Source: Escherichia coli (GTDB lineage Bacteria; Pseudomonadota; Gammaproteobacteria; Enterobacterales; Enterobacteriaceae). Taken from it: a DNA stretch of 64,000 nt. The stretch lies in assembly GCF_044324785.1 (NCBI RefSeq), contig NZ_CP172127.1, one strand, 5' to 3'. The translations under genes were made by a program, and so were the position numbers. Of the stretch, positions 12,501-61,984 are shown piece by piece. The notes beneath the pieces were generated by a model, which was given only the letters and a program-made list of their open reading frames with translations, had not been told where the DNA came from and searched no databases. How positions within the stretch are numbered: the first letter of the stretch is position 1; each line of letters starts with the position of its first letter.

Positions 12501-12519
12501 TGGTAACCCCTTAATCTAA

Positions 12520-12543
12520 CGTTATGTAGGCGTCAATATAACG
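12520..12543 (-). promoter_or_regulatory. ModE operator at the modA promoter
   Basis: Minus-strand reading CGTTATATTGACGCCTACATAACG, imperfect inverted repeat resembling the remembered ModE site, about 20 bp upstream of modA start. Confidence 0.55.
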
Positions 12544-12666
12544 GCAAGTTCGGAATTTTCCCAGCAGTTATTGCTAACCTTTGTGAGGTAGATAAGAAAA
12601 AATATCGGCAGGAAAAGCAGGAAGTTGAGAAAAAGAAAATGCCCGACTAAGCGGGCATTCAGGGAA

Positions 12667-12834
<168 letters not shown>

Positions 12835-12944
12835 TCATGAGACTATTCTAACCGCTAAGCACAGAAAAGCACTCCCCTTTTGTGCGGTCAGCTTTGCGTG
12901 GCGTTCGTTTTCCGTCACAATAAGACTTTTGCCAGGATATTGTT

Positions 12945-25737: not shown

Positions 25738-25800
25738 TGGTGGGTCGTGCAGGATGACTCGCTTCGCTCGCCCTTCGGGCCGTCGCCGCGAGCGGCTCCG
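25738..25800 (-). repeat. tRNA-Lys 3'-end-like fragment, copy 1
   Basis: Begins with the 17 nt tggtgggtcgtgcagga shared with the real tRNA-Lys 3' end, then diverges into atgactcgcttcgctcgcccttcgggccg. Confidence 0.6.
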
Positions 25801-25863
25801 TTGTTTCGCTGCGCTCAACTCAAACCTGCTGCAGGTTCGAATCTTTGAGTATCGCAGATAGCA

Positions 25864-26126: not shown

Positions 26127-26195
26127 TGGTGGGTCGTGCAGGATGACTCGCTTCGCTCGCCCTACGGGCCGTTGCTGACGCAACGTTATCCTTCA
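26127..26195 (-). repeat. tRNA-Lys 3'-end-like fragment, copy 2
   Basis: Same 17 nt tRNA 3' terminus plus atgactcgcttcgctcgccctacgggccgttgctgacgcaacg (contains CGTTGC-tga-GCAACG hairpin). Confidence 0.6.
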
Positions 26196-26224
26196 CGCTT
26201 AACATCTGAGTTTGATGTTAAAAT

Positions 26225-26300
26225 TGGTGGGTCGTGCAGGATTCGAACCTGCGACCAATTGATTAAAAGTCAACTGCTCTACCAACTGAGCTAACGACCC
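26225..26300 (-). tRNA. lysY: tRNA-Lys(UUU)
   Basis: Identical 76 nt tRNA-Lys copy. Confidence 0.95.
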
Positions 26301-26619: not shown

Positions 26620-26690
26620 TGGTGGGTCGTGCAGGATGACTCGACTTCGTCTCGCCCTTCGGGCCGTTGCTGATGCAACGTTATCCTTCA
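26620..26690 (-). repeat. tRNA-Lys 3'-end-like fragment, copy 3
   Basis: Same 17 nt tRNA 3' terminus plus atgactcgacttcgtctcgcccttcgggccgttgctgatgcaacg. Confidence 0.6.
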
Positions 26691-26719
26691 CGTTTTACTA
26701 CCGCTTCCACCTTAGCGAT

Positions 26720-26795
26720 TGGTGGGTCGTGCAGGATTCGAACCTGCGACCAATTGATTAAAAGTCAACTGCTCTACCAACTGAGCTAACGACCC
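26720..26795 (-). tRNA. lysT: tRNA-Lys(UUU)
   Basis: Identical 76 nt tRNA-Lys copy; first gene of the operon. Confidence 0.95.
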
Positions 26796-26959: not shown

Positions 26960-27751
26960 TTACATCGCGTTCAGACGTTTTTGCGCCTGTTTAGCGCCAT
27001 CAGTACCAGGATATTTACTGATAACCTGCTGGTATACGGCTTTCGCTTTTGCGGTGTCACCTTTGTCCTGCATGATGACGCCGACTTTAAACATCGCATC
27101 TGCAGCCTTTGGTGACTTCGGATAGTTTTTCACTACCGAAGCAAAATAGTACGCCGCATCATCTTTTTTACCCTTGTTGTAGTTTAACTGACCCAGCCAA
27201 TAATTGGCGTTTGGCAGGTAAGTTGAATCAGGGTAATTTTTGATGAAATTCTGAAATGCCACCATTGCGTCATCCTGGCGGGATTTATCCTGCACCAGCG
27301 CAATAGCTGCATTGTAATCCGTGTTTGCATCACCGCTTTTCACCGGCGCGCCAGCATTCGCAGTACCAGCATCAGCTGTCGGCGTCGTTGATGCCGCCGC
27401 ACCGCTTTGATCACCGCTGGTTGATTGCGCCGCTGCACCACCGCTGCTGAGGCTGTCGATCTGCAACAGGATCTGCTTTTGCCGCTCCACGACCTGATTC
27501 AGTTGATACTGATTTTCCTGAATCTGACCGCGCAGGGAATCAATATCGGATTGATTATCAGAGAGTTGTTGCTGGAGTTGGGTTAAAAGCTGGCTGTGAG
27601 CATTTGAAATACGCTCAAGTTGAGTGACGCGGTCTTCGACCGAGCCTGAGCCGACACTACTGATTGGTGCCTGAGCAAAAGCGGCCCAGGGGGCCGCTAT
27701 ACCAACCAGTAACGACAGACTCAATAGTTGATGTCTGAAGTTACTGCTCAT
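26960..27751 (-). CDS. cpoB: Cell division coordinator CpoB (YbgF), TPR protein
   Basis: 263 aa with signal peptide, coiled-coil and TPR region; last gene of the tol-pal cluster. Confidence 0.9.
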   Translation of the reverse strand: MSSNFRHQLLSLSLLVGIAAPWAAFAQAPISSVGSGSVEDRVTQLERISNAHSQLLTQLQQQLSDNQSDIDSLRGQIQENQYQLNQVVERQKQILLQIDSLSSGGAAAQSTSGDQSGAAASTTPTADAGTANAGAPVKSGDANTDYNAAIALVQDKSRQDDAMVAFQNFIKNYPDSTYLPNANYWLGQLNYNKGKKDDAAYYFASVVKNYPKSPKAADAMFKVGVIMQDKGDTAKAKAVYQQVISKYPGTDGAKQAQKRLNAM

Positions 27752-27760
27752 GCAATTCTC

Positions 27761-28306
<546 letters not shown>

Positions 28307-32746: not shown

Positions 32747-33040
32747 TTAAAAGAAGAAGAAAATCAGCCCGACAATGAGAACAATATCGGCAAGCAATGG
32801 GCAAAAAATCCCTTGCCAAAGAACCTTCTGCGGACGAAAACCCACGCCGTGAATCACACCAGCACAGACGGCCCACATCAGCAATAAACCATGCCAGATT
32901 TCCAGTTCACTGGTCTTCGCGGCGAAACGTGATGGGTCCCAAAACATACATCCTGCTAACAGAAGCGCCATCACGAAGGAAAGCGCCCGCAGGGGGCGCT
33001 TGTCCATTACCGCATACAAGGTTGCGATAATCTTACTCAT
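32747..33040 (-). CDS. ybgE: Small membrane protein of the cyd operon
   Basis: 97 aa hydrophobic ORF directly downstream of cydX. Confidence 0.8.
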   Translation of the reverse strand: MSKIIATLYAVMDKRPLRALSFVMALLLAGCMFWDPSRFAAKTSELEIWHGLLLMWAVCAGVIHGVGFRPQKVLWQGIFCPLLADIVLIVGLIFFFF

Positions 33041-33153
33041 CAGATGTCTTCTTGACCGGCTTTGCCTGATTCGACGTGCTCAAGCGCTAGCGCGGTGATT
33101 ACCCCAAACGAACAGGCAAGAAGCGTTCCCAGAATCCATGCGAAATACCACAT
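33040..33153 (-). CDS. cydX: Cytochrome bd-I small subunit CydX (37 aa)
   Basis: Hand translation MWYFAWILGTLLACSFGVITALALEHVESGKAGQEDI; stop overlaps ybgE start by 1 nt; below ORF-track length cutoff. Confidence 0.8.
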   Translation of the reverse strand: MWYFAWILGTLLACSFGVITALALEHVESGKAGQEDI

Positions 33154-33167
33154 TTTTAGCTCCTTAC

Positions 33168-34307
33168 TTAGTACAGAGAGTGGGTGTTACGTTCAATATC
33201 TTCTTTGGTGATACGACCGAACATTTTCCAGTAACACCAGGCGGTGTAGAGCAGAATGATCGGTACCAGAACCACCGCAACCCAGGTCATGACGTTAAGT
33301 GTCAGCTGGCTGGAAGTTGCATCCCACATTGTCAGACTTGCGTTCATCATGGTGCTGGACGGCATCACAAACGGGAACATTGCAATACCGGCAGTCAGGA
33401 TGATGCAGGCCAGCGTCAGGGAGGAGAACACAAACGCCCACGCCGCTTTATCCATACGTGCAGTCAGAATGGTCAGCAGTGGCAGAACCACACCCAGTGC
33501 CGGAATAGCCCACAGAATCGGCGTGTTGTTGAAGTTCACCAACCATGCGCCAGCTTCACGAACCACTTCTTTATTCAACGGGTTAGAGGCTGCGTAATGG
33601 TCCATTGTCGATTTCACGACATAACCATCGATACCGTACATCACCCATACGCCAGCCAGTGCGAAGCAGACCAGTGTCACCAGTGCCGCCACCTGAGCCG
33701 TTGCACGGGTACGCAGGTGCAGTTCGCCCACGGTACGCATTTGCAGATAGGTTGCGCCCTGAGTAATGATCATCCCTACGCTCACCACGCCAGCCAGCAG
33801 GCCGAACGGGTTAAGCAGCTGGAAGAAGTTACCGGTGTAGTACAGACGCAGATATTCATCAACGTTGAACGGTACGCCCTGCAACAGGTTACCGAACGCC
33901 ACACCAATCACCAGCGGCGGAACGAAGCTACCAATGAAGATGCCCCAGTCCCACATGTTACGCCAGCGGGTTTCTTCAATCTTGGAGCGGTAGTCAAAAC
34001 CGACCGGACGGAAGAACAAAGACGCCAGCACGAGGATCATCGCCACATAGAAGCCGGAGAACGCAGCGGCATAGACCATCGGCCAGGCAGCAAAGAGTGC
34101 GCCGCCCGCGGTGATCAGCCAAACCTGGTTACCGTCCCAGTGTGGAGCAATGGAGTTAATCATAATTCGACGCTCGGTGTCGTTACGACCGAGGAAACGG
34201 GTGAGCATGCCCACCCCCATGTCGAAACCGTCAGTGACTGCAAAACCAATCAGCAGAACGCCAACCAGCAGCCACCAGATAAAACGCAATACTTCATAAT
34301 CGATCAT
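33168..34307 (-). CDS. cydB: Cytochrome bd-I ubiquinol oxidase subunit II
   Basis: 379 aa polytopic membrane protein; synteny. Confidence 0.9.
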   Translation of the reverse strand: MIDYEVLRFIWWLLVGVLLIGFAVTDGFDMGVGMLTRFLGRNDTERRIMINSIAPHWDGNQVWLITAGGALFAAWPMVYAAAFSGFYVAMILVLASLFFRPVGFDYRSKIEETRWRNMWDWGIFIGSFVPPLVIGVAFGNLLQGVPFNVDEYLRLYYTGNFFQLLNPFGLLAGVVSVGMIITQGATYLQMRTVGELHLRTRATAQVAALVTLVCFALAGVWVMYGIDGYVVKSTMDHYAASNPLNKEVVREAGAWLVNFNNTPILWAIPALGVVLPLLTILTARMDKAAWAFVFSSLTLACIILTAGIAMFPFVMPSSTMMNASLTMWDATSSQLTLNVMTWVAVVLVPIILLYTAWCYWKMFGRITKEDIERNTHSLY

Positions 34308-35891: not shown

Positions 35892-36229
35892 CATGACTCC
35901 TTGCTCATCGCATGAAGACTCCGAGAGTGAACCCCGTTAGAAAGGGTCACACGCATGCCCCAATACAAAATTATTTGCTCGCCTCTATCGTTGCCATTTC
36001 ATCAAAAGAGGAAAAGACAATGATAAAAAAGTTACAAATATGTTAATGAATAAACCAAATTGATCCCGTAATTATATTACGCCGCAAAATCCTTACAATA
36101 AACAGGTTTTTATTGAGCAAATTTGCATTTTTCGACAGTGATCAATTTATAGCGAAATTGTCACGACATCACCAATTTGATCTACGACAATTTATCGTGT
36201 TTTGCAGATTTTTTTCAAGAATTAAAAAT

Positions 36230-36243: not shown

Positions 36244-36696
36244 ATCAGCCAAATATGTTAATTATGTATAAACCATAGATCATTGGTAATTTTATTGTTA
36301 ATTTATTGTGAAATATTTATGCAACACAATTATTACAATGAAAAAGTATAGATAAAAAACCAGTGTTTTATTTAACAGAACCGCCCTATCCACTTTTTAT
36401 AATACCAATTGATTAGAGTAGCCAATTTGTTGCTATTTTACATAACATATTTTTATCAAAGTTAATTGATTGTTGCCTTTATGAGCACCGACCGTAAGCC
36501 CGTTATGTTATTGTTTCATTAGTAATAATCACTTAAATGTATCGATAAAACAGGTATGACTTAGCGGGAGTGATTGTTTCTGAGTGAACAGAGGACACTT
36601 TCGCCTGATAAATGAAAAATGAGCGATTTTTGCAAGTTAGTTTTTCTATAGCCGAGTACGCTCAGCGCCTCGCTTGATTACAATGAGGTTGCTGCT

Positions 36697-37641
36697 ATGA
36701 GTCCTGATAATATCGGTTCGGCTGTCAATCGCTTCTTAGGTTGGCCATCTAATGATCCTCTAAAAACAGATAACGAATCAATGACATCACCCGTGACTGT
36801 GCAGGTAATAAAGATGATTGCCGCCATCCTTGACCCACATCGGATAGTCGTTGGAATCGATACACTTTATACAACGCAGCGCGAAACATTTACCTCAGAG
36901 AGTCAACAGCTCATTGAATCAGCATTGCAAACACTTCATGTGATGAATTTAAATAACCTGGAAACAAATCTCGATGAGGAAGGTCACTATCTGGCTTTTG
37001 GATATAACGTTGACACTCCTGACAGAATAACCGTTTCTGCTTATAATGAAAAAAAGCCTGGCTGCTATGGTCAATGTCTTTTAATACAGGATGACGAAAC
37101 AGACTTATTTAACCTGATAAAAGTTAAAATTTTTGAAACCAGGCATAATTATGTCGCTCAATTGATGAGCGATCCGGAATTTATGTTCAAATTTAGTTAT
37201 AGCGCTCAACAAAATAGATTAGAACCTCATCTTCTGGTTCCCACTTATTTCCCTCTAAAAACAAACGAACCGGTTACGCAAGAGGATGTACTGTTACTTT
37301 ATCGTTTCTTTAAAATGGATGGTGATTTTAATATATTAACATCAGATGAATACATGAGTATCATGACACCTCTGATGAAGTGTGAGCGCAGCATCCACGA
37401 CCACAACAGGTATGTGACGGGCAAAGATACCCTTCTTCTGGACTATCCTCCTTCTGGTAACCAGATATATTTCCATATTTTTCCTGACGAATCAGCAACA
37501 CTAGTCCTTTATTTTTCAAACAATGACATTGAATGTTTCGTCTTTGAAAGAGATATTCCGAGCCAGTATCGCTTTTTCAAAATGTTTACCAATCTGGCAC
37601 TGGTTATTGATCAGTTAACCGATGCCAATCAAATACTTTAA
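36697..37641 (+). CDS. Hypothetical protein (314 aa), no recognisable family, low G+C
   Basis: Long ORF with GAGG RBS 8 nt upstream of ATG; AT-rich codon usage unlike flanking core genes; N-terminus rich in Ser/Thr/Asn/Pro; absent from this position in K-12 as recalled. Confidence 0.5.
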   Translation: MSPDNIGSAVNRFLGWPSNDPLKTDNESMTSPVTVQVIKMIAAILDPHRIVVGIDTLYTTQRETFTSESQQLIESALQTLHVMNLNNLETNLDEEGHYLAFGYNVDTPDRITVSAYNEKKPGCYGQCLLIQDDETDLFNLIKVKIFETRHNYVAQLMSDPEFMFKFSYSAQQNRLEPHLLVPTYFPLKTNEPVTQEDVLLLYRFFKMDGDFNILTSDEYMSIMTPLMKCERSIHDHNRYVTGKDTLLLDYPPSGNQIYFHIFPDESATLVLYFSNNDIECFVFERDIPSQYRFFKMFTNLALVIDQLTDANQIL

Positions 37642-37721
37642 TTTTTATATATTCCCTGTGGCAAATATTGCTAAACAATGCCCGGGGATTAATTTTTATT
37701 ACTCACGGAAAGATTTAAATA

Positions 37722-38144
37722 ATGATCCCATCTCAAATCTCTTTCAACACCCTTCCTGTCAATGCAACATACGCTTCAGAGACAACAGTTGACACACAAA
37801 AATTCTCTGACATCCTCTACTCAGCGGGGTGTTCCCTAAAGGATCTGGCTTATCTGAGCAGATGTCTGGCATCAATACATCCGACTATCGCCAAAAACAT
37901 TTATGAAACAGAAAATCTCAGCGATCAAAAATTACTGCATATTGATTGCCGTAGTACAAATGAAATCAAGATAAATATCTTTTTTGGTCAACAACGAGAA
38001 GGATTAATTGAAATTAATTCTGACACTGTCATTTTTCCGATATTGTCTTCATTAATTGACTCCGCCATTTCTAAATTTCAACACCAAATCCCCGTTAACG
38101 GTTCAGTAAATCCTGACCTATTGTATGAGGATTATACTGATTAA
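37722..38144 (+). CDS. Hypothetical protein (140 aa), acidic, low G+C
   Basis: ORF 80 bp downstream of and co-oriented with the 314 aa ORF; similar AT-rich composition; acidic C-terminus (LLYEDYTD). Confidence 0.4.
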   Translation: MIPSQISFNTLPVNATYASETTVDTQKFSDILYSAGCSLKDLAYLSRCLASIHPTIAKNIYETENLSDQKLLHIDCRSTNEIKINIFFGQQREGLIEINSDTVIFPILSSLIDSAISKFQHQIPVNGSVNPDLLYEDYTD

Positions 38145-38691
38145 ATCCCTCCTGTCGCGAAAAATGGCCTGCGTTATTGCCAGACGTAATAAAACTTTTG
38201 ATTAACGTTACTCGTACTGGTAGCACCTTCATGTACTTTTCTTTTTTACGAAAAATCAAAAGAGCTAACAAAGGTCATAATTCGCATGAATCATTAATTA
38301 TTTGTTATTTTCAACATTATTTTTACATTAAGCAGAGATGAATTGCAGTGAAATTCGACTTAACTTTTATGAAATGCATTTACTCATGGCTAAAGCCACG
38401 TCACAAAAATGCAAATTAGAAGTTGATCACAATTATCTCAATACATCAAATCAAGTTAATTTTAAAAATTTAACATTCATGACATTAGTTGACATAACAC
38501 ACTGAATTAAAATGATAATTTGAAAACACACTTTAAACAATCATTTCCCGAAAGACATTTTGAAAATAGATCAATTGCAACATTACGGTCAGATAAAGAC
38601 ACTCCTGTGATATTAAACCTGTGCCGTTATGAGCGGCCATAAATACGACGTGTGTAACTTATTTTACTCTCTGTCTTACAAAGGATTACCC

Positions 38692-39141
38692 ATGAAGAAA
38701 GCAACACTTGTGATTGGCGTTATTGGCGCGGACTGCCATGCAGTAGGCAATAAAGTTCTGGACCGAGTTTTTAGCAACCATGACTTCAGAGTTATTAATC
38801 TGGGCGTAATGGTCAGCCAGGACGAATATATTGATGCTGCCATTGAAACTGGTGCTGACGCGATTGTCGTCTCCTCTATCTATGGGCATGGCGATATCGA
38901 TTGTCTGGGCATGCGCGAACGCTGCATCGAGCGTGGGCTGGGTAACATCCTGCTCTATGTGGGCGGTAACCTGGTGGTCGGAAAACATGACTTCGCTGAC
39001 GTGGAAACCAAGTTCAAAGAGATGGGATTTGATCGCGTCTTTTCCCCAAGTCATGACTTAGAAGATGTTTGTCAGCTGATGGCCCACGATATCAACCAAC
39101 GTCATGACGTTGATACTCGCATTCTTGAAGAGGCAATCTGA
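38692..39141 (+). CDS. glmS: Glutamate mutase sigma (B12-binding) subunit
   Basis: [18 protein letters not shown] cobalamin-binding motif (DxHxxG); start placed at MKKATLV with AAGGA RBS; stop overlaps the next start. Confidence 0.85.
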
Positions 39142-40529
39142 TGCAAATCGTCTCTGTCGATATTGGATCGACGTGGACCAAAGCAGCCCTCTTCACCCGG
39201 GAGGGGGACGCGTTAACGTTGGTTAACCACGTTCTGACCCCAACCACCACCCATCATCTGGCGAAGGGGTTTTTCTCCAGCCTGGACCAGGTGTTAAACG
39301 TAGATAATGCCCTCCCCCTGTTAAACAGTGGTGAGGTTGCATTGAAGTATTCCTCCTCTGCCAAAGGTGGGCTGGCGGTTGCCGCAATGGGATTGGTGCC
39401 TTCTATCACCCTGGAAACCGCGAAAGTAACCGCTCACTCTGCGGGGGCTAAAATTGCGCAATATTACGCCTACAAGCTGAACCGCCGTGATATCCAGGCA
39501 CTGGAAGAAACGCAGCCCGATATTCTCTTGTTCACCGGCGGCACCGACGGCGGAGAAGAAAGCTACGGCCTGAATAACGCCCGTGTGCTGGCAGAATCCA
39601 AACTCGACTGCGCCATTATTTATGCCGGAAACCGGGATATTCAGGACGAGGTGCAGGAGATCCTAGGGCATAAAGACCTGACCATCGTCGACAATGTTCT
39701 GCCCGATCTTGACCATCCGAACCCTTTAGCTGCACGCCAGGCTATCTGCGACATATTCCTTAAACGCATCGTTAAAGGGAAAGGGCTGGATGTCGTTGTT
39801 GATAAAACAGGCGAAGAACCAATGCCGACACCGTGGACAGTCTTTGAACTGGTTAAGGCAATCAGTAATGTCGATCACAGCTGGAAAGAGTTCATGCTGA
39901 TCGACATGGGTGGCGCAACCACCGATGTCTATTCCGCCTGTGCCAACACGCTCTCGCCCGACACCGTTTTACACGGCGTACCGGAACCCTTCGTGAAACG
40001 GACGGTGGAAGGCGATCTGGGAATGCGCGTCTCGGCAATGGTGGTTGGTGAAAGTGCGAAAGAGTTAGTCAATGTGAATTTTGCTCAGCAACCCGCACAG
40101 CTGGACGCTTTTTATCATTACCTCCGTCATCTAGTCGCTCATCCCGACTACTTACCCGCGAATGCAGAAGAAAAATATTTCGATACCGTCCTGGCCGGAC
40201 TGTGTGTGGGTTATGCCACCGAAAGACATGCGGGCACCAAAAAAGAGGTCTGCACCTGCGTCGGCAATGTCGATTTACAGATGGGACGTGACCTGACAAC
40301 CGTGCGTAAAGTCGTCGGATCCGGCGGATGGCTCTCGCGTGCCAGTCAGTTCGATATGCATCACTGGTTGAAATACCGCGAGTTAAACGACGACGGTAAA
40401 CGCATTCTCTTACCGACCGAATTTGAATATTACCGCGATTCCCGGGGGCTATTACCACTGCTGGCAAACGTCGCCAGAGTCGATCCACTGGCCGCCGCGC
40501 GCACCAGTATTCAATGCTTAACCCTATAA
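39141..40529 (+). CDS. glmL: Glutamate mutase accessory/reactivating protein (MutL/GlmL-like)
   Basis: 462 aa starting [18 protein letters not shown] (ASKHA/actin-like ATPase fold); sits between the S and E subunit genes as in clostridial glutamate mutase operons. Confidence 0.75.
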   Translation: MQIVSVDIGSTWTKAALFTREGDALTLVNHVLTPTTTHHLAKGFFSSLDQVLNVDNALPLLNSGEVALKYSSSAKGGLAVAAMGLVPSITLETAKVTAHSAGAKIAQYYAYKLNRRDIQALEETQPDILLFTGGTDGGEESYGLNNARVLAESKLDCAIIYAGNRDIQDEVQEILGHKDLTIVDNVLPDLDHPNPLAARQAICDIFLKRIVKGKGLDVVVDKTGEEPMPTPWTVFELVKAISNVDHSWKEFMLIDMGGATTDVYSACANTLSPDTVLHGVPEPFVKRTVEGDLGMRVSAMVVGESAKELVNVNFAQQPAQLDAFYHYLRHLVAHPDYLPANAEEKYFDTVLAGLCVGYATERHAGTKKEVCTCVGNVDLQMGRDLTTVRKVVGSGGWLSRASQFDMHHWLKYRELNDDGKRILLPTEFEYYRDSRGLLPLLANVARVDPLAAARTSIQCLTL

Positions 40530-40547
40530 CAATTAAGGCTGCAATCA

Positions 40548-41993
40548 ATGGAACTTCGAAATAAGAAATTAACCCATGACGAATTCATGACCGAGCGGCA
40601 ACAGGTACTGAAAACCTGGGAAACCGGCAAGGATGTTGAAAACTTTGAAGATGGCGTTAAATACCAACAAACCATTCCTGAGCATAAACGCTTCTCTCTT
40701 GCGCTGTTGAAAGCAGACAAGGAAGGTAAAACCCTTAGCCAACCGCGCGCAGGTGTGGCGCTGATGGACGAACACATCGAACTACTGAAAACACTACAAG
40801 AAGAGTGCGATCTGCTGCCGAGCACCATCGATGCATATACCCGTCTGAATCGGTACGAAGAAGCGGCTGTAGGGATTAAAAAATCCATCGAAGCCGGAAC
40901 CTCTAAACTGAACGGTTTACCGGTAGTTAACCACGGCGTCGCAGCTTGCCGTCGCCTCACCGAAACTTTGCAAAAACCGCTACAGATCCGCCACGGCACG
41001 CCAGATGCGCGTCTGCTGGCTGAAATCTCGATGGCCAGCGGCTTTACCAGTTATGAAGGCGGCGGCATTTCCTACAATATTCCGTATGCCAAGCGCGTAA
41101 CGCTGGAAAAATCGATCCGCGACTGGCAGTACTGCGACCGTTTAATGGGGATGTATGAAGAACACGGGATCCGCATCAACCGCGAACCGTTTGGCCCACT
41201 AACGGGTACGCTGATCCCGCCGTTTATCTCGCACTCTATCGCGATAATCGAAGGATTACTGGCGCTGGAACAGGGTGTGAAATCTATCACCGTTGGTTAT
41301 GGACAGGTCGGCAGCCTGACGCAGGATGTTGCGGCGATCCAGTCTCTGCGTGAACTTGCACATGAATACTTTCAGAGCTATGGCTATACCGACTATGAAT
41401 TAAGTACCGTGTTTCACCAGTGGATGGGCGGCTTTCCGGAAGACGAATCGAAAGCGTTCGCTATTATCTCCTGGGGCGCAGCCGTCGCGGGGATGTCTGG
41501 TGCCACCAAAGTCATCACCAAAAGTCCGCACGAAGCCTGGGGTATCCCGACTGCCGCTGCCAACATTCAGGGGCTGAAAGCCTCCCGCCAGATGCTCAAC
41601 ATGGTCAATGAGCAGAAATTCCCGCCGTGCCCTGCGGTTGAACTGGAAATTGAACTGATTAAGAGCGAGGTTCGCGCGGTACTGAATAAAGTGTTCGAAC
41701 TGGGTAATGGTGATATTGCGCGCGGTACGGTGCTGGCATTTGAAGCGGGCGTACTGGATGTGCCGTTTGCGCCAGCCGCCTGCAACGCGGGCAAAATTCT
41801 TCCGGTCCGTGACAACACCGGCGCAATACGCGTACTGGAAGCCGGAGCCGTTCCATTGCCAAAAGATATTCTCGACCTCCACCACGATTACGTTGCGGAA
41901 CGCGCACGCTTTGAAGGACGCCAACCGACATTCCAGATGGTTGTAGATGACATCAATGCTGTATCCCACAGTAAATTAATAGGAAGACCATAA
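40548..41993 (+). CDS. glmE: Glutamate mutase epsilon (catalytic) subunit
   Basis: 481 aa with extensive similarity to remembered clostridial GlmE/MutE (e.g. QPRAGVALMDEHIELL, NREPFGPLTGTL, FQMVVDDI). Confidence 0.85.
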   Translation: MELRNKKLTHDEFMTERQQVLKTWETGKDVENFEDGVKYQQTIPEHKRFSLALLKADKEGKTLSQPRAGVALMDEHIELLKTLQEECDLLPSTIDAYTRLNRYEEAAVGIKKSIEAGTSKLNGLPVVNHGVAACRRLTETLQKPLQIRHGTPDARLLAEISMASGFTSYEGGGISYNIPYAKRVTLEKSIRDWQYCDRLMGMYEEHGIRINREPFGPLTGTLIPPFISHSIAIIEGLLALEQGVKSITVGYGQVGSLTQDVAAIQSLRELAHEYFQSYGYTDYELSTVFHQWMGGFPEDESKAFAIISWGAAVAGMSGATKVITKSPHEAWGIPTAAANIQGLKASRQMLNMVNEQKFPPCPAVELEIELIKSEVRAVLNKVFELGNGDIARGTVLAFEAGVLDVPFAPAACNAGKILPVRDNTGAIRVLEAGAVPLPKDILDLHHDYVAERARFEGRQPTFQMVVDDINAVSHSKLIGRP

Positions 41994-43234
41994 TGAAAAT
42001 AAAACAGGCTCTGTTCACCGCTGGCTACTCCTCATTCTATTTCGATGACCAGCAGGCGATAAAAAACGGAGCGGGTCATGACGGCTTTTTTTATACCGGG
42101 GAGCCAGTAACACAGGGGTTTAACGCCGTACGTCAGGCCGGGGAGTGCGTATCGGTACAGTTGATTCTGGAAAACGGCGCGGTCGCTGTAGGTGACTGTG
42201 CTGCCGTACAGTATTCCGGGGCAGGTGGTCGCGATCCACTGTTCCTCGCAGAGCACTTTATTCCGTTCCTCAACGACCATATTAAGCCATTACTGGTAGG
42301 CCGCGATGTAGATGCTTTCCTGCCGAATGCCCGTTTCTTCGACAAATTGCGTATTGACGGCAACTTGCTACATACCGCCGTACGCTACGGATTATCACAG
42401 GCGCTGCTTGATGCTACCGCGCTGGCAACCGGCCGTCTGAAAACTGAAGTGGTCTGTGATGAATGGCAGTTGCCACGCGTGGCGGAATCCATTCCATTAT
42501 TTGGTCAGAGCGGGGACGATCGATATATCGCCGTCGATAAGATGATCCTTAAGGGCATCGACGTGCTGCCCCATGCACTGATTAATAACGTCGAAGAGAA
42601 ACTGGGCTTTAAAGGTGAAAAACTGCGCGAATATGTCCGCTGGCTGTCGGATCGTATTCTGAGCAAGCGCACCAGCGCACGCTACCACCCTACCCTGCAC
42701 ATCGATGTATACGGCACTATCGGTCTGATCTTCGATATGGATCCGCTTCGCTGTGCGCAATACATCGCCAGCCTGGAAAAAGAAGCGCAAGGCCTGCCGC
42801 TCTACATTGAAGGGCCGGTCGATGCCGGTAACAAGACCGATCAAATTCGCCTGCTGACCGCGATTACCAAAGAGCTGACGCGCCTCGGTTCCGGCGTGAA
42901 AATTGTGGCCGATGAATGGTGTAACACCTACCAGGATATTGTTGATTTCACTGATGCCGCCAGTTGCCACATGGTGCAAATCAAAACCCCGGATCTGGGC
43001 AGTATTCACAACATCGTCGATGCAGTTCTTTATTGCAACAGCCACAGCATGGAAGCGTACCAGGGCGGCACCTGCAATGAAACTGATGTCAGTGCCCGCA
43101 CCTGTGTCCACGTCGCCCTTGCCGCTCGCCCCATGCGTATGCTGGTAAAGCCAGGGATGGGCTTTGACGAAGGCCTCGATATCGTCTTCAACGAAATGAA
43201 TCGTACTATCGCGCTGTTGCAGGCTAAGGATTAA
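41993..43234 (+). CDS. mal: 3-methylaspartate ammonia-lyase (beta-methylaspartase)
   Basis: 413 aa enolase-superfamily protein matching remembered clostridial MAL (GDCAAVQYSGAGGRDPLF, HMVQIKTPDLG); start overlaps glmE stop. Confidence 0.85.
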   Translation: MKIKQALFTAGYSSFYFDDQQAIKNGAGHDGFFYTGEPVTQGFNAVRQAGECVSVQLILENGAVAVGDCAAVQYSGAGGRDPLFLAEHFIPFLNDHIKPLLVGRDVDAFLPNARFFDKLRIDGNLLHTAVRYGLSQALLDATALATGRLKTEVVCDEWQLPRVAESIPLFGQSGDDRYIAVDKMILKGIDVLPHALINNVEEKLGFKGEKLREYVRWLSDRILSKRTSARYHPTLHIDVYGTIGLIFDMDPLRCAQYIASLEKEAQGLPLYIEGPVDAGNKTDQIRLLTAITKELTRLGSGVKIVADEWCNTYQDIVDFTDAASCHMVQIKTPDLGSIHNIVDAVLYCNSHSMEAYQGGTCNETDVSARTCVHVALAARPMRMLVKPGMGFDEGLDIVFNEMNRTIALLQAKD

Positions 43235-43237
43235 CAA

Positions 43238-44608
43238 ATGGCTCGTTCTTTTAAAGTCTTATCGCCAACGGCAATCCTCGGGTATGGATTCCCGGAAGAG
43301 AGCTTCCGCAAAGCGATGGCAGAATCGCCCGATCTGATCGCCGTTGATGCAGGCTCTTCCGATCCAGGCCCCCACTACCTCGGGGCGGGCAAACCGTTTA
43401 CCGATCGCGCAGGGGTCAAGCGCGATCTGCGCTATATGATCACCGCAGGCGTTCAAAATAATATACCGGTGGTGATCGGAACGGCCGGCGGTTCTGGTGC
43501 CGCTCCACACCTGGAGTGGTGCCGAGAAATAATTCATGAGATTGCCCGGGAAGAGCACCTCTCGTTCTCGATGGCGCTGATCCCAGCAGACGTTGACAAA
43601 GCCATCGTCCACCAGGCGCTGGATAACGGCAAAATCACGGCGCTGGATTTTGTCCCGCCGTTAACCCACGACGCGATTGACGAAAGTACGTATATCGTCG
43701 CGCAAATGGGCATCGAACCCTTCCAGCGGGCGCTGAAAGAAGGCGCGCAAGTGGTGCTGGGCGGGCGCGCTTACGACCCGGCCTGCTTTGCTGCGCTACC
43801 GATCATGCAAGGCTTTGATGAAGGTCTGGCGCTGCATTGCGGGAAAATCCTTGAATGCGCGGCAATCGCCGCAACGCCCGGCTCAGGCTCTGACTGTGCG
43901 ATGGGCATCATTGATGACAACGGCTTTACGCTGAAGACATTTAATCCGAAGCGTAAATTTACCGAAACGTCAGCAGCTGCACACACACTGTATGAGAAAT
44001 CCGATCCCTACTTCCTGCCAGGACCTGGCGGCGTGTTGAACCTGAAAGGCTGCACATTTAAAGCGGTCAATGACGGCGAAGTGTACGTCAGCGGTTCTAA
44101 GCATGAAGAAACGCCGTATGCCCTGAAACTGGAAGGTGCGCGACGGGTGGGCTTCCGCTGTCTGACCATCGCCGGAACGCGCGACCCGATCATGATCGCC
44201 GGGATCGATAAAATCATCGATGAAGTCAAAACCAGCGTTTCGCGTAACCTGTCGCTCGACGATGACAGCATTCGCATCAATTTCCACCTGTACGGCAAAA
44301 ACGGGGTGATGGGCGACCATGAACCGATGCAAACTGCCGGGCATGAGCTGGGGATTGTCCTAGATGTAGTTGCACCGACCCAGGAAATTGCCAACAGCGT
44401 TTGCTCGCTGGTGCGCTCTACTATGCTGCACTACGGCTATGAAAACCGCATCGCTACCGCAGGCAACCTGGCGTTCCCGTTCTCCCCTTCTGATATCCAG
44501 GGCGGGCCAGTATACGAATTTTCCATATATCACCTGATTGAAGCCAACGACGCTCTGCGTTTTGATTTCCATATTGAACAGGTGACGCCAGAAGGAGTTC
44601 AGGCATGA
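43238..44608 (+). CDS. DUF1446-like (AtuA-like) protein of unknown function
   Basis: 456 aa ORF beginning 4 nt after the mal stop; family assignment from memory of the N-terminal region, not verified. Confidence 0.55.
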   Translation: MARSFKVLSPTAILGYGFPEESFRKAMAESPDLIAVDAGSSDPGPHYLGAGKPFTDRAGVKRDLRYMITAGVQNNIPVVIGTAGGSGAAPHLEWCREIIHEIAREEHLSFSMALIPADVDKAIVHQALDNGKITALDFVPPLTHDAIDESTYIVAQMGIEPFQRALKEGAQVVLGGRAYDPACFAALPIMQGFDEGLALHCGKILECAAIAATPGSGSDCAMGIIDDNGFTLKTFNPKRKFTETSAAAHTLYEKSDPYFLPGPGGVLNLKGCTFKAVNDGEVYVSGSKHEETPYALKLEGARRVGFRCLTIAGTRDPIMIAGIDKIIDEVKTSVSRNLSLDDDSIRINFHLYGKNGVMGDHEPMQTAGHELGIVLDVVAPTQEIANSVCSLVRSTMLHYGYENRIATAGNLAFPFSPSDIQGGPVYEFSIYHLIEANDALRFDFHIEQVTPEGVQA

Positions 44609-44922
44609 AACAGTCAATTGTCTCACTGGCGCAAGTCATTCGTTCGAAAAATGCCGGACCTTACGAACTGGTTTTAGATATTTTATTTAAAACCAAAGAA
44701 AACTATGAGCGAGTTAAATCATCAGGGCAATTAACCCCAGAACTGATTGCGCGCTTATATCATGTTGAACCTGACTTTATTCACCGTATTGTCTGGTTTG
44801 ATCCTTCTAACGCAGTAAAAATCGTCATGCCACGAGATATTATCTCCGGGAATGTAGGTGACAATGATGTCTATGGTGCACAGCAACATGCACCTTTATT
44901 AAATATGAGTTTCGATTTGTAA
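44605..44922 (+). CDS. Small protein (105 aa), DUF4387-like
   Basis: Start overlaps the stop of the preceding ORF (ATGA); DUF1446/DUF4387 pairing recalled from other genomes. Confidence 0.5.
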   Translation: MKQSIVSLAQVIRSKNAGPYELVLDILFKTKENYERVKSSGQLTPELIARLYHVEPDFIHRIVWFDPSNAVKIVMPRDIISGNVGDNDVYGAQQHAPLLNMSFDL

Positions 44923-45003
44923 AAATCCGAACATTTTTAGCCAACTGACATCCCGTCACTTATTGCAGTTCAACACTTCAGCTATTTGTAAGGTTGTAAT
45001 AGC

Positions 45004-45055
45004 AGGTAGATGCCTGAATCTCTATTCGGGCATCTACTTCTCCTGATTCTGATTT
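45004..45055 (+). terminator. Candidate hairpin/partial terminator between the enzyme block and the transporter gene
   Basis: 10 bp stem GTAGATGCC..GGCATCTAC followed by a T-rich tract (ttctcctgattctgattt). Confidence 0.3.
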
Positions 45056-45082
45056 ATCGCCGTGCACCTGATGGAGGAAAAA

Positions 45083-46363
45083 ATGAAGAAAATAAGTTTA
45101 ACCACGATGATTCTTTTGGCGCTGGTACTTGGAATGATTATCGGCGTAGTGCTCAATAACACTGCTTCACCGGAAACCGCAAAACTCTATGCGCAAGAAA
45201 TATCGATATTCACGACGATTTTCTTACGACTGATAAAAATGATTATCGCTCCGTTAGTGGTCTCTACCCTGGTGGTAGGTATAGCTAAAATGGGCGATGC
45301 CAAAGCCCTTGGTCGTATTTTTTCTAAAACACTCTTTTTATTTATTTGCGCCTCATTGCTGTCAATTGCCTTAGGCTTGATAACAGTAAATTTCTTCATG
45401 CCAGGCACAGGAATTAATTTTGTTGCACACGGAGCCGAAACCACCGGAGTGGTCGCGTCAGAACCCTTTACGCTAAAAGTATTTATTTCGCATGCTTTCC
45501 CCACCAGCATTGTCGATGCCATGGCGCACAATGAAATTTTGCAAATCGTGGTGTTCTCAATTTTCCTCGGCTGTAGCCTGACGGCGATTGGCGAGAAAGG
45601 CAGCGCCATCGTTCACGCCTTAGATTCGCTGGCACATGCCATGTTAAAGCTCACTGGCTACGTCATGCTCTTCGCTCCCCTGACCGTATTCGCTGCTATT
45701 TCAGCATTGATTGCTGAACGAGGACTGGCAGTTATGGTGAGCGCCGGGATCTTTATGGGTGAATTTTATTTCACCATGTTATTACTTTGGGTGCTGCTTA
45801 TCGGTCTGGCCATCGTTTATGTCGGCCCCTGCATCAGACGCCTGACCCGCGCCCTTTCGGAACCCGCCCTGCTGGCATTTACCACATCCAGTTCTGAAGC
45901 GGCTTTTCCGGGAACGCTTGAAAAACTGGAGCAATTTGGCGTTTCCCCCAAAATTGCCAGCTTTGTCTTACCCATTGGCTACTCATTTAATCTCGTTGGA
46001 TCAATGGCCTACTGCTCCTTCGCCACAGTTTTCATCGCCCAGGCCTGCAATATCCATTTATCCATCGGTGAGCAAATCACCATGCTGTTGATCCTGATGT
46101 TGACCTCGAAAGGAATGGCTGGCGTACCACGCGCCTCAATGGTGGTTATCGCCGCCACGCTCAACCAGTTCAATATTCCGGAAGCGGGGCTGATCTTGCT
46201 GATGGGCGTTGATCCGTTCCTTGATATGGGGCGTTCCGCGACAAACGTCATGAGCAACGCAATGGGCGCTGCGATGGTGAGTCGGTGGGAAGGCGAACAT
46301 TTCGGCGAGGGCTGTCGGGGTAAAGCATTAAAACCCAATGAATCGAACGTTGCTCTGCCCTGA
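45083..46363 (+). CDS. Dicarboxylate/amino acid:cation symporter (GltP/DctA family), probable glutamate uptake
   Basis: Hydrophobic ORF, start placed at MKKISL with GGAGG RBS; GltP-like N-terminus. Confidence 0.8.
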   Translation: MKKISLTTMILLALVLGMIIGVVLNNTASPETAKLYAQEISIFTTIFLRLIKMIIAPLVVSTLVVGIAKMGDAKALGRIFSKTLFLFICASLLSIALGLITVNFFMPGTGINFVAHGAETTGVVASEPFTLKVFISHAFPTSIVDAMAHNEILQIVVFSIFLGCSLTAIGEKGSAIVHALDSLAHAMLKLTGYVMLFAPLTVFAAISALIAERGLAVMVSAGIFMGEFYFTMLLLWVLLIGLAIVYVGPCIRRLTRALSEPALLAFTTSSSEAAFPGTLEKLEQFGVSPKIASFVLPIGYSFNLVGSMAYCSFATVFIAQACNIHLSIGEQITMLLILMLTSKGMAGVPRASMVVIAATLNQFNIPEAGLILLMGVDPFLDMGRSATNVMSNAMGAAMVSRWEGEHFGEGCRGKALKPNESNVALP

Positions 46364-46470
46364 GGGGGATCTTAAGCAATCAGAAGCCAATGACTACGCA
46401 TTTTTATAAGCCGGATCATGAAGTTAGACGGCAATTAAGTAACACTAACGTTTAAGGTGAAAAGTGAAAT

Positions 46471-48123
46471 ATGTCCAAACCATTTATCTGGCAAGAACCG
46501 TTTCTACAAAATAAAGACGGTACAGAATATACATTAATTAGCGATCAACATATTACAGTAACGGAATTAGACGGCGAAGAAGTGATAAAAATCGCTCCTG
46601 AAGCATTAACGCTGCTTGCCCGGCAGGCATTTTATGAAGCCTCTTTTTTCTTACGTTCCGCTCATTTGCAACAGGTCGCCAGCATTCTTAACGATCCGCA
46701 GGCCAGTAGTAATGATAAATACGTTGCGTTGCAGTTATTACGTAATGCTGAAGTCTCAGCAAAAGGGGTATTACCCAACTGTCAGGATACCGGCACCGCA
46801 ACTATTGTTGCCAGTAAAGGGCAACAGATATGGACCGGAGGTAACGACGCCGAAGCCTTAAGCAAAGGCATTTACACCACTTTTCAGGAAAATAATCTGC
46901 GCTTTTCACAAAATGCGCCACTGGATATGTATACCGAAGTCAATACGCAAACCAATCTACCGGCGCAGATTGATATCAGCGCCGTCGCTGGTGATGAGTA
47001 CCATTTTCTCTGTATTAATAAAGGGGGCGGCTCTGCCAATAAAGCCGCGCTTTATCAGGAAACAAAATCCCTATTGCAACCAGAAAAACTGACCGCATTT
47101 TTAATCGAAAAAATGAAATCGCTGGGCACCGCTGCCTGCCCGCCTTACCACATCGCCTTTGTCGTCGGAGGGCTTTCAGCCGATCAAACCTTAAAAGTTG
47201 CCAAGCTGGCCTCAACGAAATATTACGACAATTTGCCCACCAGCGGAAACGCGCAGGGACAAGCATTCCGTGATATTGAGTTGGAAAAAGCGTTGCTCAA
47301 CGCCAGTCAGCAATTTGGTATTGGTGCGCAATTTGGGGGTAAATATTTCGCTCATGATATTCGCGTCATTCGTCTGCCGCGTCACGGTGGCTCTTGCCCG
47401 ATAGCTATGGCGCTCTCCTGTTCTGCCGATCGCAATATCAAAGCAAAAATTAACAAGCACGGTATCTGGCTGGAAAAACTCGTACACAATCCGGGGCAAT
47501 ATATTCCAGCCTCACTGCGGGAAGAAAATCACCCGCAACATGTACAGCTGGATCTAAACCGTCCGTTGCGTGACGTGATGCAGGATCTCGCCAGATTACC
47601 GGTAGGCACCCGCGTGTCGTTAAATGGTCCCATCGTAGTGGCGCGCGATATCGCCCACGCCAAAATAAAAGCGCGGCTGGATAGCGGCGAACCGATGCCG
47701 GATTACCTGAAGCATCATATTGTCTATTACGCTGGCCCGGCGAAAACACCTGAGAACATGGCCTGCGGTTCACTGGGTCCAACCACGGGTGGACGAATGG
47801 ACGGTTATGTCGATACCTTCCAGGCGGTTGGCGGCAGTCTGGTGATGTTATCGAAAGGTAACCGCAGCCAGCAGGTCACCGATGCCTGTCACAAACATGG
47901 CGGCTTCAATCTGGGAAGTATTGGCGGTGCAGCAGCGTTACTGGCGCAAGAATATGTCAAAAGTCTGCGTTGCCTGGAATACCCGGAGCTGGGTATGGAA
48001 GCGGTGTGGATGATGGAAGTGGAAAATCTGCCCGCATTCATCCTGGTAGATGATAAAGGCAATAATTTCTTTAGTCAGTTTGAGCAGCAACACCGCTGCG
48101 CCAGTTGCCCTGCGGGACATTAA
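46471..48123 (+). CDS. Class I fumarate hydratase paralog (candidate mesaconase)
   Basis: 550 aa nearly collinear with remembered E. coli FumA ([37 protein letters not shown]); located in the methylaspartate cluster. Confidence 0.85.
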
Positions 48124-48132
48124 GGAAAATGA

Positions 48133-48735
48133 ATGGAAGCGCGAATTTCAACTGAACGGCATGTGCAGCGCCAGCAGAAATTGAAGGAACAGGTCGATAC
48201 GCGCGTCGCGGCGGCGATAGAGAAAAAAGGGATCTTGATTGTTTTCACCGGCAACGGCAAAGGGAAATCCACTGCCGCGTTTGGTACTGTGACGCGCGCG
48301 GTGGGTCATGGCAAAACGGTGGGGGTTGCGCAGTACATCAAGGGGCAATGGGACAACGGCGAATACAACCTTCTCCAGCCGCTGGGGGTTGAGTTTCATA
48401 TTATGGGAACCGGTTTTACCTGGGAGACACAGAACCGGCAAGCGGATATCGACGCGGCGAAAGAGGTCTGGTCGGAAAGCAAACGGATGCTGGCTGACAA
48501 GCGTTACGACTTAGTGGTGCTTGATGAGCTGACCTATATGCTGGCTTACCATTATCTGGACACCGAAGAAGTGATCGCTTCTCTGCAAAACCGCCCGGCA
48601 CAACAAAGTGTCATTGTCACCGGACGCGGTTGCCACAGTCAGATATTAAAAATGGCGGATACGGTCAGCGAAATCCGCCCCGTCAAACATGCTTTTGATA
48701 ACGGCATTCAGGCGCAGCCGGGTATCGACTGGTAA
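48133..48735 (+). CDS. ATP:cob(I)alamin adenosyltransferase (BtuR/CobA family)
   Basis: 200 aa with IVFTGNGKGKSTAAFG P-loop; collinear with remembered BtuR. Confidence 0.85.
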   Translation: MEARISTERHVQRQQKLKEQVDTRVAAAIEKKGILIVFTGNGKGKSTAAFGTVTRAVGHGKTVGVAQYIKGQWDNGEYNLLQPLGVEFHIMGTGFTWETQNRQADIDAAKEVWSESKRMLADKRYDLVVLDELTYMLAYHYLDTEEVIASLQNRPAQQSVIVTGRGCHSQILKMADTVSEIRPVKHAFDNGIQAQPGIDW

Positions 48736-48768
48736 TAACTGCGCCTGGCATCCCGCCAGGCGCAGGTT

Positions 48769-49674
48769 TTACATCTCCTGCGGTACGACCGATTTCGCCA
48801 GCAACCATTCACGAAATTGCTGCAAGTGCGGCGAGTCAGACTTCTCTTCCTGCCACGTCATAATAAAACGATTACCGGTACGAATAGGCACATCACAGGG
48901 AATCACCATATCGCCACTATCCAAATCATGTTGAATAGCGAACCGTGGTAACAGCGCCACGCCGAGATTAGAGCGCACGGCGGCAATCAGCATTGAAAGC
49001 AAATCGAAACGTGGTCCGTTGTTGACCAGCGGACTGCTAACGCCAGATAAGGCAAACCACTCTTCCCAGCCAGTAATACGGGTACTTTGATGCAGAAGTG
49101 GTAACTCTGTAAGCAGTTCTGCCACTGACAGTTTTTGATCGGACATTGCAAGCAAACTGCCGCTGCATACCGGCAAAATCTCTTCTTCAAAGAGATATTC
49201 TACTTCCGCCCAGGGCGCGCAAAAATTTTCGCGCATAATGACAGCATCGTACTCCCGATTAAGAAAATCGCCGTTATTAGCTAAAGAGTGAATATTAACA
49301 ATAATATCGGGATGTAACTTTGTGAATTCATGTAAATTTGGGATTAACCAGTGGGTACTAAACGTAGGATTCACGGCAAGTTCAATAACCTGAACCGTAG
49401 GCTGCCAGGTCATAATGGTATTGGTATCGCGTTCCAGCTTATTTAATGTTTCTTTTACTATCCCCAGGTAATACTTCCCTGCATCATTAAGAAAAATACG
49501 TTTTTTAGAGTGTGAAAATAACGGAGTATGTAAAAATTCCTCCAGCGCACTCACTTGTCTGAATACTGCACTTTGGGTTAACGCTAACTCCTCTGCCGCT
49601 CTGGTATAACTTTCATGACGTGCGACGACCTCAAAAGTCACCAGCAGTTCCGTTTTAGGTATTTTCCCTCGCAT
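48769..49674 (-). CDS. LysR-family transcriptional regulator
   Basis: 301 aa with N-terminal LysR HTH (YTRAAEELALTQSAVFRQVSALE); convergent with the pathway operon. Confidence 0.8.
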   Translation of the reverse strand: MRGKIPKTELLVTFEVVARHESYTRAAEELALTQSAVFRQVSALEEFLHTPLFSHSKKRIFLNDAGKYYLGIVKETLNKLERDTNTIMTWQPTVQVIELAVNPTFSTHWLIPNLHEFTKLHPDIIVNIHSLANNGDFLNREYDAVIMRENFCAPWAEVEYLFEEEILPVCSGSLLAMSDQKLSVAELLTELPLLHQSTRITGWEEWFALSGVSSPLVNNGPRFDLLSMLIAAVRSNLGVALLPRFAIQHDLDSGDMVIPCDVPIRTGNRFIMTWQEEKSDSPHLQQFREWLLAKSVVPQEM

Positions 49675-49705
49675 AATGCCGTCCCTTAAAAATAGTTTAA
49701 ACCAT

Positions 49706-49723
49706 CAAAAATACATTACTTAT
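49706..49723. promoter_or_regulatory. Inverted repeat TTACTT-N6-AAGTAA upstream of the LysR gene
   Basis: Perfect 6 bp arms about 32 bp upstream of the LysR start; fits a T-N11-A LysR-type box. Confidence 0.3.
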
Positions 49724-50239
49724 TACGAAGTAATGGTAACCAAAGCAGCAATAAATAATTTATAAGAATCATGATTGACATTTATAACCCAGTAAGCCTG
49801 GCGTGACAAATATCTTAATCAGATAATAATAATCCGAAAAGCACAGCGCCTTTCGAATTATCCGGAATCACATTAAGTGAAAATTATTAAATTGATATCA
49901 TTTATCATATCTGTGGATATTATGATAAACAATCAACAAAGATTTTATTTTTGATTTATAGCATATCCCTCTAAGAATTTTTGCGATGCTGCAATATCCG
50001 GGGTAAAGACCCGATCCTGGCTGACAAATGGCACGACTTGACGATAAGCGGTGAACATCGCTTTTGTTGATTTACTTAACGCTACGGTCAAACGCTGGGA
50101 AGCCAGTGCATCAGGTAACGATTCGAAATTCGCCGTCGTTCTTATTCGTGGCTTGCGGTCGGTTGCGGCAATCCACAGTGGCTGTGGTCATGCAGTCAAG
50201 CCAGCGGTCAGATTTCGACCGTGGTTAACGTTTAAGGCA

Positions 50240-50339
50240 TAAAAAAGGCCATCATACGATGGCCAACCATGTCGAAACCGACAGCCCTTCGCCATTCCTG
50301 TAGAGGGAAGCGGCGAGGGCTATTTCTTATTACAGATAT
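50240..50339 (-). ncRNA. sdhX: sucD 3'UTR-derived sRNA (SdhX/RybD-like) with intrinsic terminator
   Basis: About 100 nt directly downstream of the sucD stop ending in hairpin ggccatcgtatgatggcc plus U-run on the minus transcript; identity by position and memory only. Confidence 0.45.
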
Positions 50340-52375: not shown

Positions 52376-52468
52376 GTGTTCTGTCCATCCTTCAGTAATC
52401 GTTATCTTTTAAACCGTAGACCGACACCCTATCCACGTCGGTCTACAGTGCAGGTGAAGCTTAAACTA

Positions 52469-56702: not shown

Positions 56703-57419
56703 TTACGCATTACGTTGCAACAACATCGACTTGATATGGCCGATGGCGCGCGTCGGGTTCAGCCCCTTCGGACATACACTGACGCAGTTCATGATGCTGT
56801 GACAGCGGAATACGCTGAATGCATCGCTCAAACCGTCGAGGCGGCTGTCAGTCTCGGTATCACGGCTATCGATCAGGAAACGATATGCCGCTAACAAGCC
56901 TGCCGGGCCGATAAACTTATCGGGATTCCACCAGAAAGACGGACAAGAGGTTGAACAACATGCGCAGAGAATACATTCATACAGCCCGTCGAGTTTTTCG
57001 CGCTGCTCTGGCATCTGTAAATGCTCGCGAGCTGGCGGATTTTGTCCATTATTCAACAGGTAAGGCTTAATTTTCTCATATTGCGCATAGAATTGTCCCA
57101 TGTCTACCACCAAATCGCGGATCACCGGTAAACCTGGCAGCGGGCGAATCACAATCTTCTTGCCCGGCTGGTTGAGTGCCGAAATCGGGGTAATACAGGC
57201 CAGACCATTCTTGCCGTTCATGTTCAGACCGTCGGAACCGCACACACCTTCACGGCAGGAGCGACGGAACGACAGGCTGGGATCTTTCTCTTTCAGCTGG
57301 ATAAGCGCATCCAGCAGCATCATGTCACGACCTTCTTCCGCTTCCAGGGTGTAATCCTGCATACGCGGAGCATCATCAACATCCGGGTTATAGCGATAAA
57401 TTGAAAACTCGAGTCTCAT
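56703..57419 (-). CDS. sdhB: Succinate dehydrogenase iron-sulfur subunit
   Basis: 238 aa with Cys clusters for 2Fe-2S/4Fe-4S/3Fe-4S centres. Confidence 0.95.
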   Translation of the reverse strand: MRLEFSIYRYNPDVDDAPRMQDYTLEAEEGRDMMLLDALIQLKEKDPSLSFRRSCREGVCGSDGLNMNGKNGLACITPISALNQPGKKIVIRPLPGLPVIRDLVVDMGQFYAQYEKIKPYLLNNGQNPPAREHLQMPEQREKLDGLYECILCACCSTSCPSFWWNPDKFIGPAGLLAAYRFLIDSRDTETDSRLDGLSDAFSVFRCHSIMNCVSVCPKGLNPTRAIGHIKSMLLQRNA

Positions 57420-57434
57420 TTTCCTGTCTCCGCA

Positions 57435-59931: not shown

Positions 59932-59946
59932 GAATAACGCCCACAT

Positions 59947-61922: not shown

Positions 61923-61950
61923 TGGTTGATTGCTAAGCCGTTTACTTTCC

Positions 61951-61984
61951 GGACCCGCCTTTAATAGAGCGGGTTCTTTTTTAT
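61951..61984 (+). terminator. Intrinsic terminator after gltA
   Basis: Hairpin acccgc..gcgggt followed by T6. Confidence 0.6.

Follow-up and report, generated by a model that had tools for sequence, protein, structure and literature searches.

Genomic context

The 64,000-nucleotide stretch of DNA analysed here (the window) is a segment of the Escherichia coli chromosome, and its orientation is reversed relative to that of K-12. Its first part runs from ybhC through modCBA, acrZ, modEF, galETKM, gpmA, aroG, ybgS, zitB and pnuC to nadA; there follow a lys/val tRNA cluster, cpoB-pal-tolBARQ-ybgC, ybgE-cydX-cydB-cydA, sucDCBA-sdhBADC and gltA. The features discussed below are collected in Table 1. 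Rfam places a CpoB/ybgF thermometer at 27722..27860 on the minus strand (142 bits) and three RtT-like elements at 25738..25863, 26127..26293 and 26620..26788, also on the minus strand, among the seven tRNA genes of the cluster (five Lys, two Val). The spacer between sucB and sucC (52424..52439) is about 180 nt shorter than its K-12 equivalent.

Between cydA and sucD, positions 36268..50232 have no counterpart in K-12 and replace mngR-mngA-mngB. This island encodes methylaspartate mutase (glmS, glmL and subunit E) and a methylaspartate ammonia-lyase, genes of the glutamate fermentation type, together with an AtuA-family protein, a DUF4387 protein, a dicarboxylate symporter, a class I fumarate hydratase, cobO and a LysR-type regulator. 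Among 5426 complete E. coli genomes, about 1117-1135 carry it, roughly a fifth. The island of strain E2348/69 is truncated by ISEc13, and mngR is retained there. Two island ORFs, 36697..37641 (314 aa) and 37722..38144 (140 aa), are annotated as 'hypothetical protein' and belong to no Pfam family; unlike in the neighbouring metabolic genes, amino-acid-changing differences between strains are about as numerous as silent ones or exceed them (33 against 15 in the 314-aa ORF, 10 against 11 in the 140-aa ORF).

Table 1. Coordinates of the genes, remnants and signals considered in this work
Feature	Position in window	Strand	Description
Intrinsic-terminator-like hairpin with T-run	12637..12660	-	7 nt past the acrZ stop; 9 pairs, 5 of them G-C; tail TCTTTTTCTC
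acrZ (ybhT)	12667..12816	-	49 aa; single-helix accessory protein of the AcrB multidrug efflux pump
ybgE	32747..33040	-	97 aa; NF007881, 185.2 bits
cydX (ybgT)	33040..33153	-	Single-helix third subunit of cytochrome bd-I oxidase; stop TGA 33042..33040
Putative cydX Shine-Dalgarno motif AAGGAG	33160..33165	-	6 nt ahead of the ATG, 2 nt past the cydB stop; read from sequence
cydB	33168..34307	-	Cytochrome bd-I subunit II; directly upstream of cydX; based on the ORF and on how RefSeq annotates the homologous locus
AT-rich spacer upstream of glmS (methylaspartate mutase S)	38145..38691	+	Follows the gene for a 140-aa hypothetical protein; no supported small ORF
HAL/PAL/TAL ammonia-lyase remnant	49945..50138	-	Two pieces, about 113 codons deleted between them
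RtcB-family gene remnant	50142..50242		Covers the gene's 3' end plus an internal piece
sdhX sRNA	50241..50339	-	First 99 nt past sucD; 3' end of the sdh-suc transcript
ybgU	60327..60434	+	35 aa; between sdhC and gltA; DNA 100% identical to K-12 b4735
ybgV	60418..60450	+	10 aa, GTG start; DNA 100% identical to K-12 b4768

cydX and its junctions with cydB and ybgE

Both cydX and acrZ fall below the 60-aa default ORF cut-off of the analysis tools used here. Length is a poor guide at this size: a six-frame count gave 268 ORFs of 37-59 aa in the window, where shuffled sequences average 357, and the ORF length at cydX and acrZ is by itself not above chance. The two genes stand above chance because their products are identical to chains of known structure, because of their HMM scores, and because of the pattern of differences from K-12, which in cydX and ybgE are all silent.

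The minus-strand ORF at 33040..33153 comprises 37 codons, starts with ATG and encodes the product MWYFAWILGTLLACSFGVITALALEHVESGKAGQEDI (37 aa), that is, CydX. The product is 100% identical (37/37 residues) to chain X in the structure of E. coli cytochrome bd-I, PDB entry 6RKO. It scores 70.7 bits against the TIGR02106 profile (cut-off 31.6) and 53.9 bits against PF08173 (cut-off 26.2), and RefSeq genomes annotate this ORF as cydX. The key features of CydX have been described as the N-terminal residues Y3, W6 and G9 and a hydrophobic helix (PMC4325964). All three residues are present in the N-terminus of the window protein, MWYFAWILG, which is followed by a hydrophobic stretch reaching to about residue 24. 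PF08173 also includes CbdX/AppX (YccB), the small subunit of the bd-II oxidase. CydX matches the NF011333 profile weakly, with 21.7 bits, far under the cut-off of 57, and its gene belongs to the cyd operon rather than the app operon. The 37-aa product is the small subunit of bd-I and not its bd-II paralogue CbdX/AppX.

The cydB stop codon, TAA at 33170..33168, is followed on the same strand by the cydX start 14 nt downstream. At the other end of the gene the minus strand reads ATC TGA TG: the cydX TGA occupies 33042..33040 and the ybgE ATG occupies 33040..33038, and base 33040 is common to both, giving an overlap of 1 nt. The overlap in K-12 is identical (cydX 774196..774309, ybgE 774309..774602). 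Relative to K-12, cydX carries two nucleotide differences and ybgE five, all seven of them silent. Thus the window shares with K-12 CydX (YbgT, b4515) the entire protein (37/37), the position after cydB, the overlap with ybgE and the Shine-Dalgarno motif, and the two silent differences are the sole departure. The gene order cydA-cydB-cydX-ybgE-ybgC-tolQ is also that of K-12. Of the 5426 complete E. coli genomes, 5425 contain the 601 nt around cydX, and cydX is annotated under the match.

acrZ

The 49-aa AcrZ is encoded on the minus strand at 12667..12816. Its sequence is 100% identical (49/49) to chain C of PDB entry 4C48, the AcrB-AcrZ complex, and likewise identical to the chain in 6SGS. The PF10766 profile matches AcrZ with 102.9 bits (cut-off 26.2) over positions 1-47 of its 48; no model was matched in a search of AcrZ against the NCBIfam profiles. 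P16, where the helix bends, is present in the window protein, which fits the AcrZ layout of an N-terminal transmembrane helix followed by a hydrophilic C-terminus. The annotated ATG at 12816 lies inside a 51-codon ORF that opens with TTG, and this TTG, two codons upstream, falls within the ribosome-binding region. A putative Shine-Dalgarno motif, GGAG, is located at 12826..12823, 6 nt ahead of the ATG.

The coding DNA equals that of K-12 at all 150 of 150 nt, and acrZ lies between modE and modA in both genomes; compared with K-12 AcrZ (YbhT, b0762), there is no difference in protein, coding DNA or position. The surrounding 444 nt of modA-acrZ-modE sequence (12501..12944) contain seven mismatches to K-12, an identity of 98.4%. 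A 451-nt stretch around acrZ occurs in 5391 of the 5426 complete E. coli genomes, and acrZ is annotated under the match. Hobbs and co-workers reportedly found, in 2012, that MarA, Rob and SoxS control acrZ, which is said to be co-regulated with acrAB.

Two further small ORFs, ybgU and ybgV

Validated ORFs of no more than 50 aa number at least four in the window: cydX, acrZ, ybgU and ybgV. The last two, which are listed in the curated K-12 record, occupy the same sdhC-gltA position as in K-12, and their DNA shows no difference from the K-12 genes. The 3' end of ybgU is overlapped by ybgV, which is read in a different frame. YbgU is matched over its full length (residues 1-35) by the PF23495 profile, with 100.5 bits against a cut-off of 27. 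The YbgU product has been demonstrated by chromosomal epitope tagging (PMC6001520), and YbgV by ribosome profiling of initiation complexes together with tagging (bioRxiv 10.1101/511675). In a near-identical genome PGAP annotates acrZ, cydX and the ybgU ORF, the latter as 'hypothetical protein'. Identity with K-12 falls to 94.2% in the part of the window running from sdhB to ybgD (56703..63107), compared with about 98% in the rest, and yet ybgU and ybgV, which lie in this part, are 100% identical.

An earlier note on this DNA had proposed a 37-aa CydX at 33040-33153 that overlaps ybgE by 1 nt, and a 49-aa AcrZ at 12667-12816. Both proposals hold exactly. For cydX the ORF, the identity with chain X of 6RKO and the K-12 arrangement all agree with what had been claimed; for acrZ the ORF, the identity with chain C of 4C48 and the PF10766 match do so. 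The statement that the window holds two such small proteins is correct in that both are genuine, and falls short as a count, ybgU and ybgV also being there. The practical caution for such scans is that a length cut-off conceals validated genes: four in the window, of which two had been listed.

The region between the regulator gene and sucD

The stretch 49675-50339 had been regarded as an island leader that might harbour short ORFs. It is not a leader. It is made up of sdhX, what is left of two decayed genes, and the AT-rich promoter DNA ahead of the lysR-type gene. The sdhX sequence is identical to K-12 b4764 at 99 of 99 nt; it is absent from the results of the Rfam scan of the window at gathering threshold.

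The two remnants could be read against strain 1532WA, in which both genes are intact and about 10 kb lie between sucD and the island regulator gene. This block contains rtcB, hutU, a permease gene, hutD, hutI, hutG and the ammonia-lyase gene. With blastn, the debris at 49945..50242 matches the rtcB and HAL regions of 1532WA, and with tblastn the two pieces of the HAL/PAL/TAL remnant match the intact 1532WA gene with E values of 2e-24 and 4e-07. Since 1532WA has an intact hut/rtcB block at this very spot, the version in the window arose by deletions. The map of the window is corrected accordingly: what had passed for a leader is an sRNA gene together with the remains of two genes lost by deletion.

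The 48-aa ORF at 49945..50091 matches the C-terminus of the lyase and so is the end of a dead gene, not a small-protein gene. In strain GN02270, PGAP places a 'hypothetical protein' of 84 aa on this debris. In the AT-rich sequence of about 270 nt upstream of the lysR-type gene there are a 29-aa ORF on the plus strand (49676..49765) and a 21-aa ORF on the minus strand (49716..49781). Both are invariant in close strains, and both were rejected: in the 87%-identical 1532WA copy they are interrupted, one gaining a stop codon and the other losing its ATG start as well as gaining a stop.

We scanned all island spacers for ORFs of 8-70 codons preceded by a Shine-Dalgarno motif. None was found in 49675-50232, and the only three in the island spacers as a whole were 35955..36023, 36020..36046 and 50259..50303. 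The last of these is antisense to sdhX. The first two (22 codons, and 8 codons encoding MIKKLQIC) lie on the plus strand, opposite to cydA, each with a Shine-Dalgarno-like motif in front, in the region upstream of cydA that is shared with K-12. Neither varies among four strains, which leaves no substitution pattern to judge them by.

The spacer upstream of glmS

The spacer 38145-38691 was aligned among five strains: the window, WP4-S18-ESBL-07, O157:H7 FRIK2533, E2348/69 and 1532WA. Divergence reaches about 5%. For every spacer ORF of at least 15 aa we counted silent (S) and amino-acid-changing (N) differences among the five. The control genes gave S21:N5 (glmS), S33:N5 (glmL) and S20:N2 (the lysR-type gene), counts that point to purifying selection on all three. 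With five strains and at most 5% divergence, this comparison has little power for ORFs of less than 15 aa, for the block 38546..38700 and for the low-variation stretch 49675..49944.

No ORF of 15 aa or more in 38145-38691 showed a coding pattern of substitutions among the five strains. Each informative ORF lacks its start or contains a stop in at least one strain, or else shows a clear excess of N over S. As coding sequences, the short ORFs of this spacer are rejected on present evidence, being broken or having N>S wherever they are informative. Three ORFs in or beside an invariant block (38560..38610, 38533..38640 and 38627..38707) carry zero to two differences and are unscorable. The longest ORF in the spacer, 55 codons at 38338..38505, has S3:N12, a ratio that appears close to the neutral expectation and typical of unconstrained sequence. 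It belongs to no family in a Pfam search, and none of the ORFs of 8-70 codons in 38145-38691 is preceded by a Shine-Dalgarno motif.

The block 38546..38700 (about 155 nt), immediately ahead of glmS, has one variable column among the five strains, against 2-4 per 30 nt further upstream, and is more conserved than the adjacent coding sequence; this conservation is the single real feature of the spacer. Its fold, taken over 38545-38700, is no better than that of shuffled sequences (z = 0.18). An Rfam search over 38100-38720 returned nothing at E<=1. A riboswitch ahead of glmS, for instance a cobalamin riboswitch (the mutase is B12-dependent), was considered and discarded: no such match was obtained from Rfam at the gathering threshold in the whole window. 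A promoter scan of the spacer found 3 sites where 2.7 are expected. The core of an FNR site is TTGA-N6-TCAA; the sequence TTGA-N7-TCAA at 38560..38574 has a spacing one base too long, and as a non-canonical match it was rejected. A promoter, operator or 5' UTR of glmS would explain the conservation of the block.

The spacer might nevertheless encode one or more real small proteins or leader peptides that are restricted to certain strains and beyond the reach of comparative analysis, the candidates being the 55-codon ORF or a very short ORF within 38546..38700. This reading can draw on three observations. The 55-codon ORF is open in all five strains compared; the block is nearly invariant, so its substitution pattern cannot be scored; and a 16-codon ORF starting with TTG (38560..38610) lies unchanged inside the block. 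As to the first of these, an ORF of 168 nt with about ten substitutions is, by our estimate, expected to stay open by chance. Against the reading, the counts for the 55-codon ORF are quite unlike those for glmS, the ORF has neither a Shine-Dalgarno motif nor a Pfam family, and such a motif is wanting on every spacer ORF of 8-70 codons. We consider the existence of such peptides very improbable. Equally slight are the chances that the conserved block or the 55-codon ORF represents a leader peptide, a small protein or an RNA element not described before; such an element would act as a regulator of E. coli's methylaspartate (glutamate fermentation) island, which depends on B12.

The preferred reading of the spacer is that it contains no supported small ORF. 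The earlier note had expected further short ORFs in the leaders of the island, and comparative sequence support for them is absent in both 38145-38691 and 49675-50339. In the former, the small-protein check that had been suggested gave ORFs that are broken, have N>S or are unscorable, and no Shine-Dalgarno motif, Rfam match or fold signal.

Roles of CydX and AcrZ

Taken together, we put a probability of about 0.97 on the reading that cydX and acrZ are characterised small-protein genes in their normal sites, that at least two more validated small ORFs are present in the window, and that the island spacers are without a supported one. That the cydX or acrZ ORF is here an unexpressed relic, annotated by homology only, is scarcely credible: both proteins are 100% identical to functional K-12 proteins, the ribosome-binding sites and the acrZ terminator are intact, and cydX and ybgE have gathered silent changes only in an operon context that is itself intact. 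The identification of CydX and AcrZ is already known, both being part of K-12 and of routine RefSeq annotation, and adds nothing new. Among the small membrane proteins of bacteria they are textbook cases whose structures have been solved, and finding them here is of little significance.

As genes in their normal sites, cydX and acrZ would be expected to act as follows. cydX would form the third cistron of a cydABX-ybgE operon and be translated from its own Shine-Dalgarno motif just past cydB. The TGATG junction may allow translational coupling between cydX and ybgE, judging by the overlap alone. The single transmembrane helix of CydX would sit on CydA in cytochrome bd-I and be needed for an active and stable oxidase; CydX has been found within the CydAB complex and to be required for activity (PMC4325964).

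Lying between modE and modA, acrZ would be a single-gene unit that has a terminator to itself. The bent transmembrane helix of AcrZ is predicted to bind the membrane domain of AcrB and to shift the pump toward some substrates, such as chloramphenicol. AcrZ has been reported to bind the transmembrane part of AcrB, with a bend around P16 that is required for the interaction (PMC7267776). Loss of AcrZ leads to greater sensitivity to chloramphenicol, and sensitivity to erythromycin is not raised; AcrZ and cardiolipin alter the drug-binding pocket of AcrB (PMC7267776).
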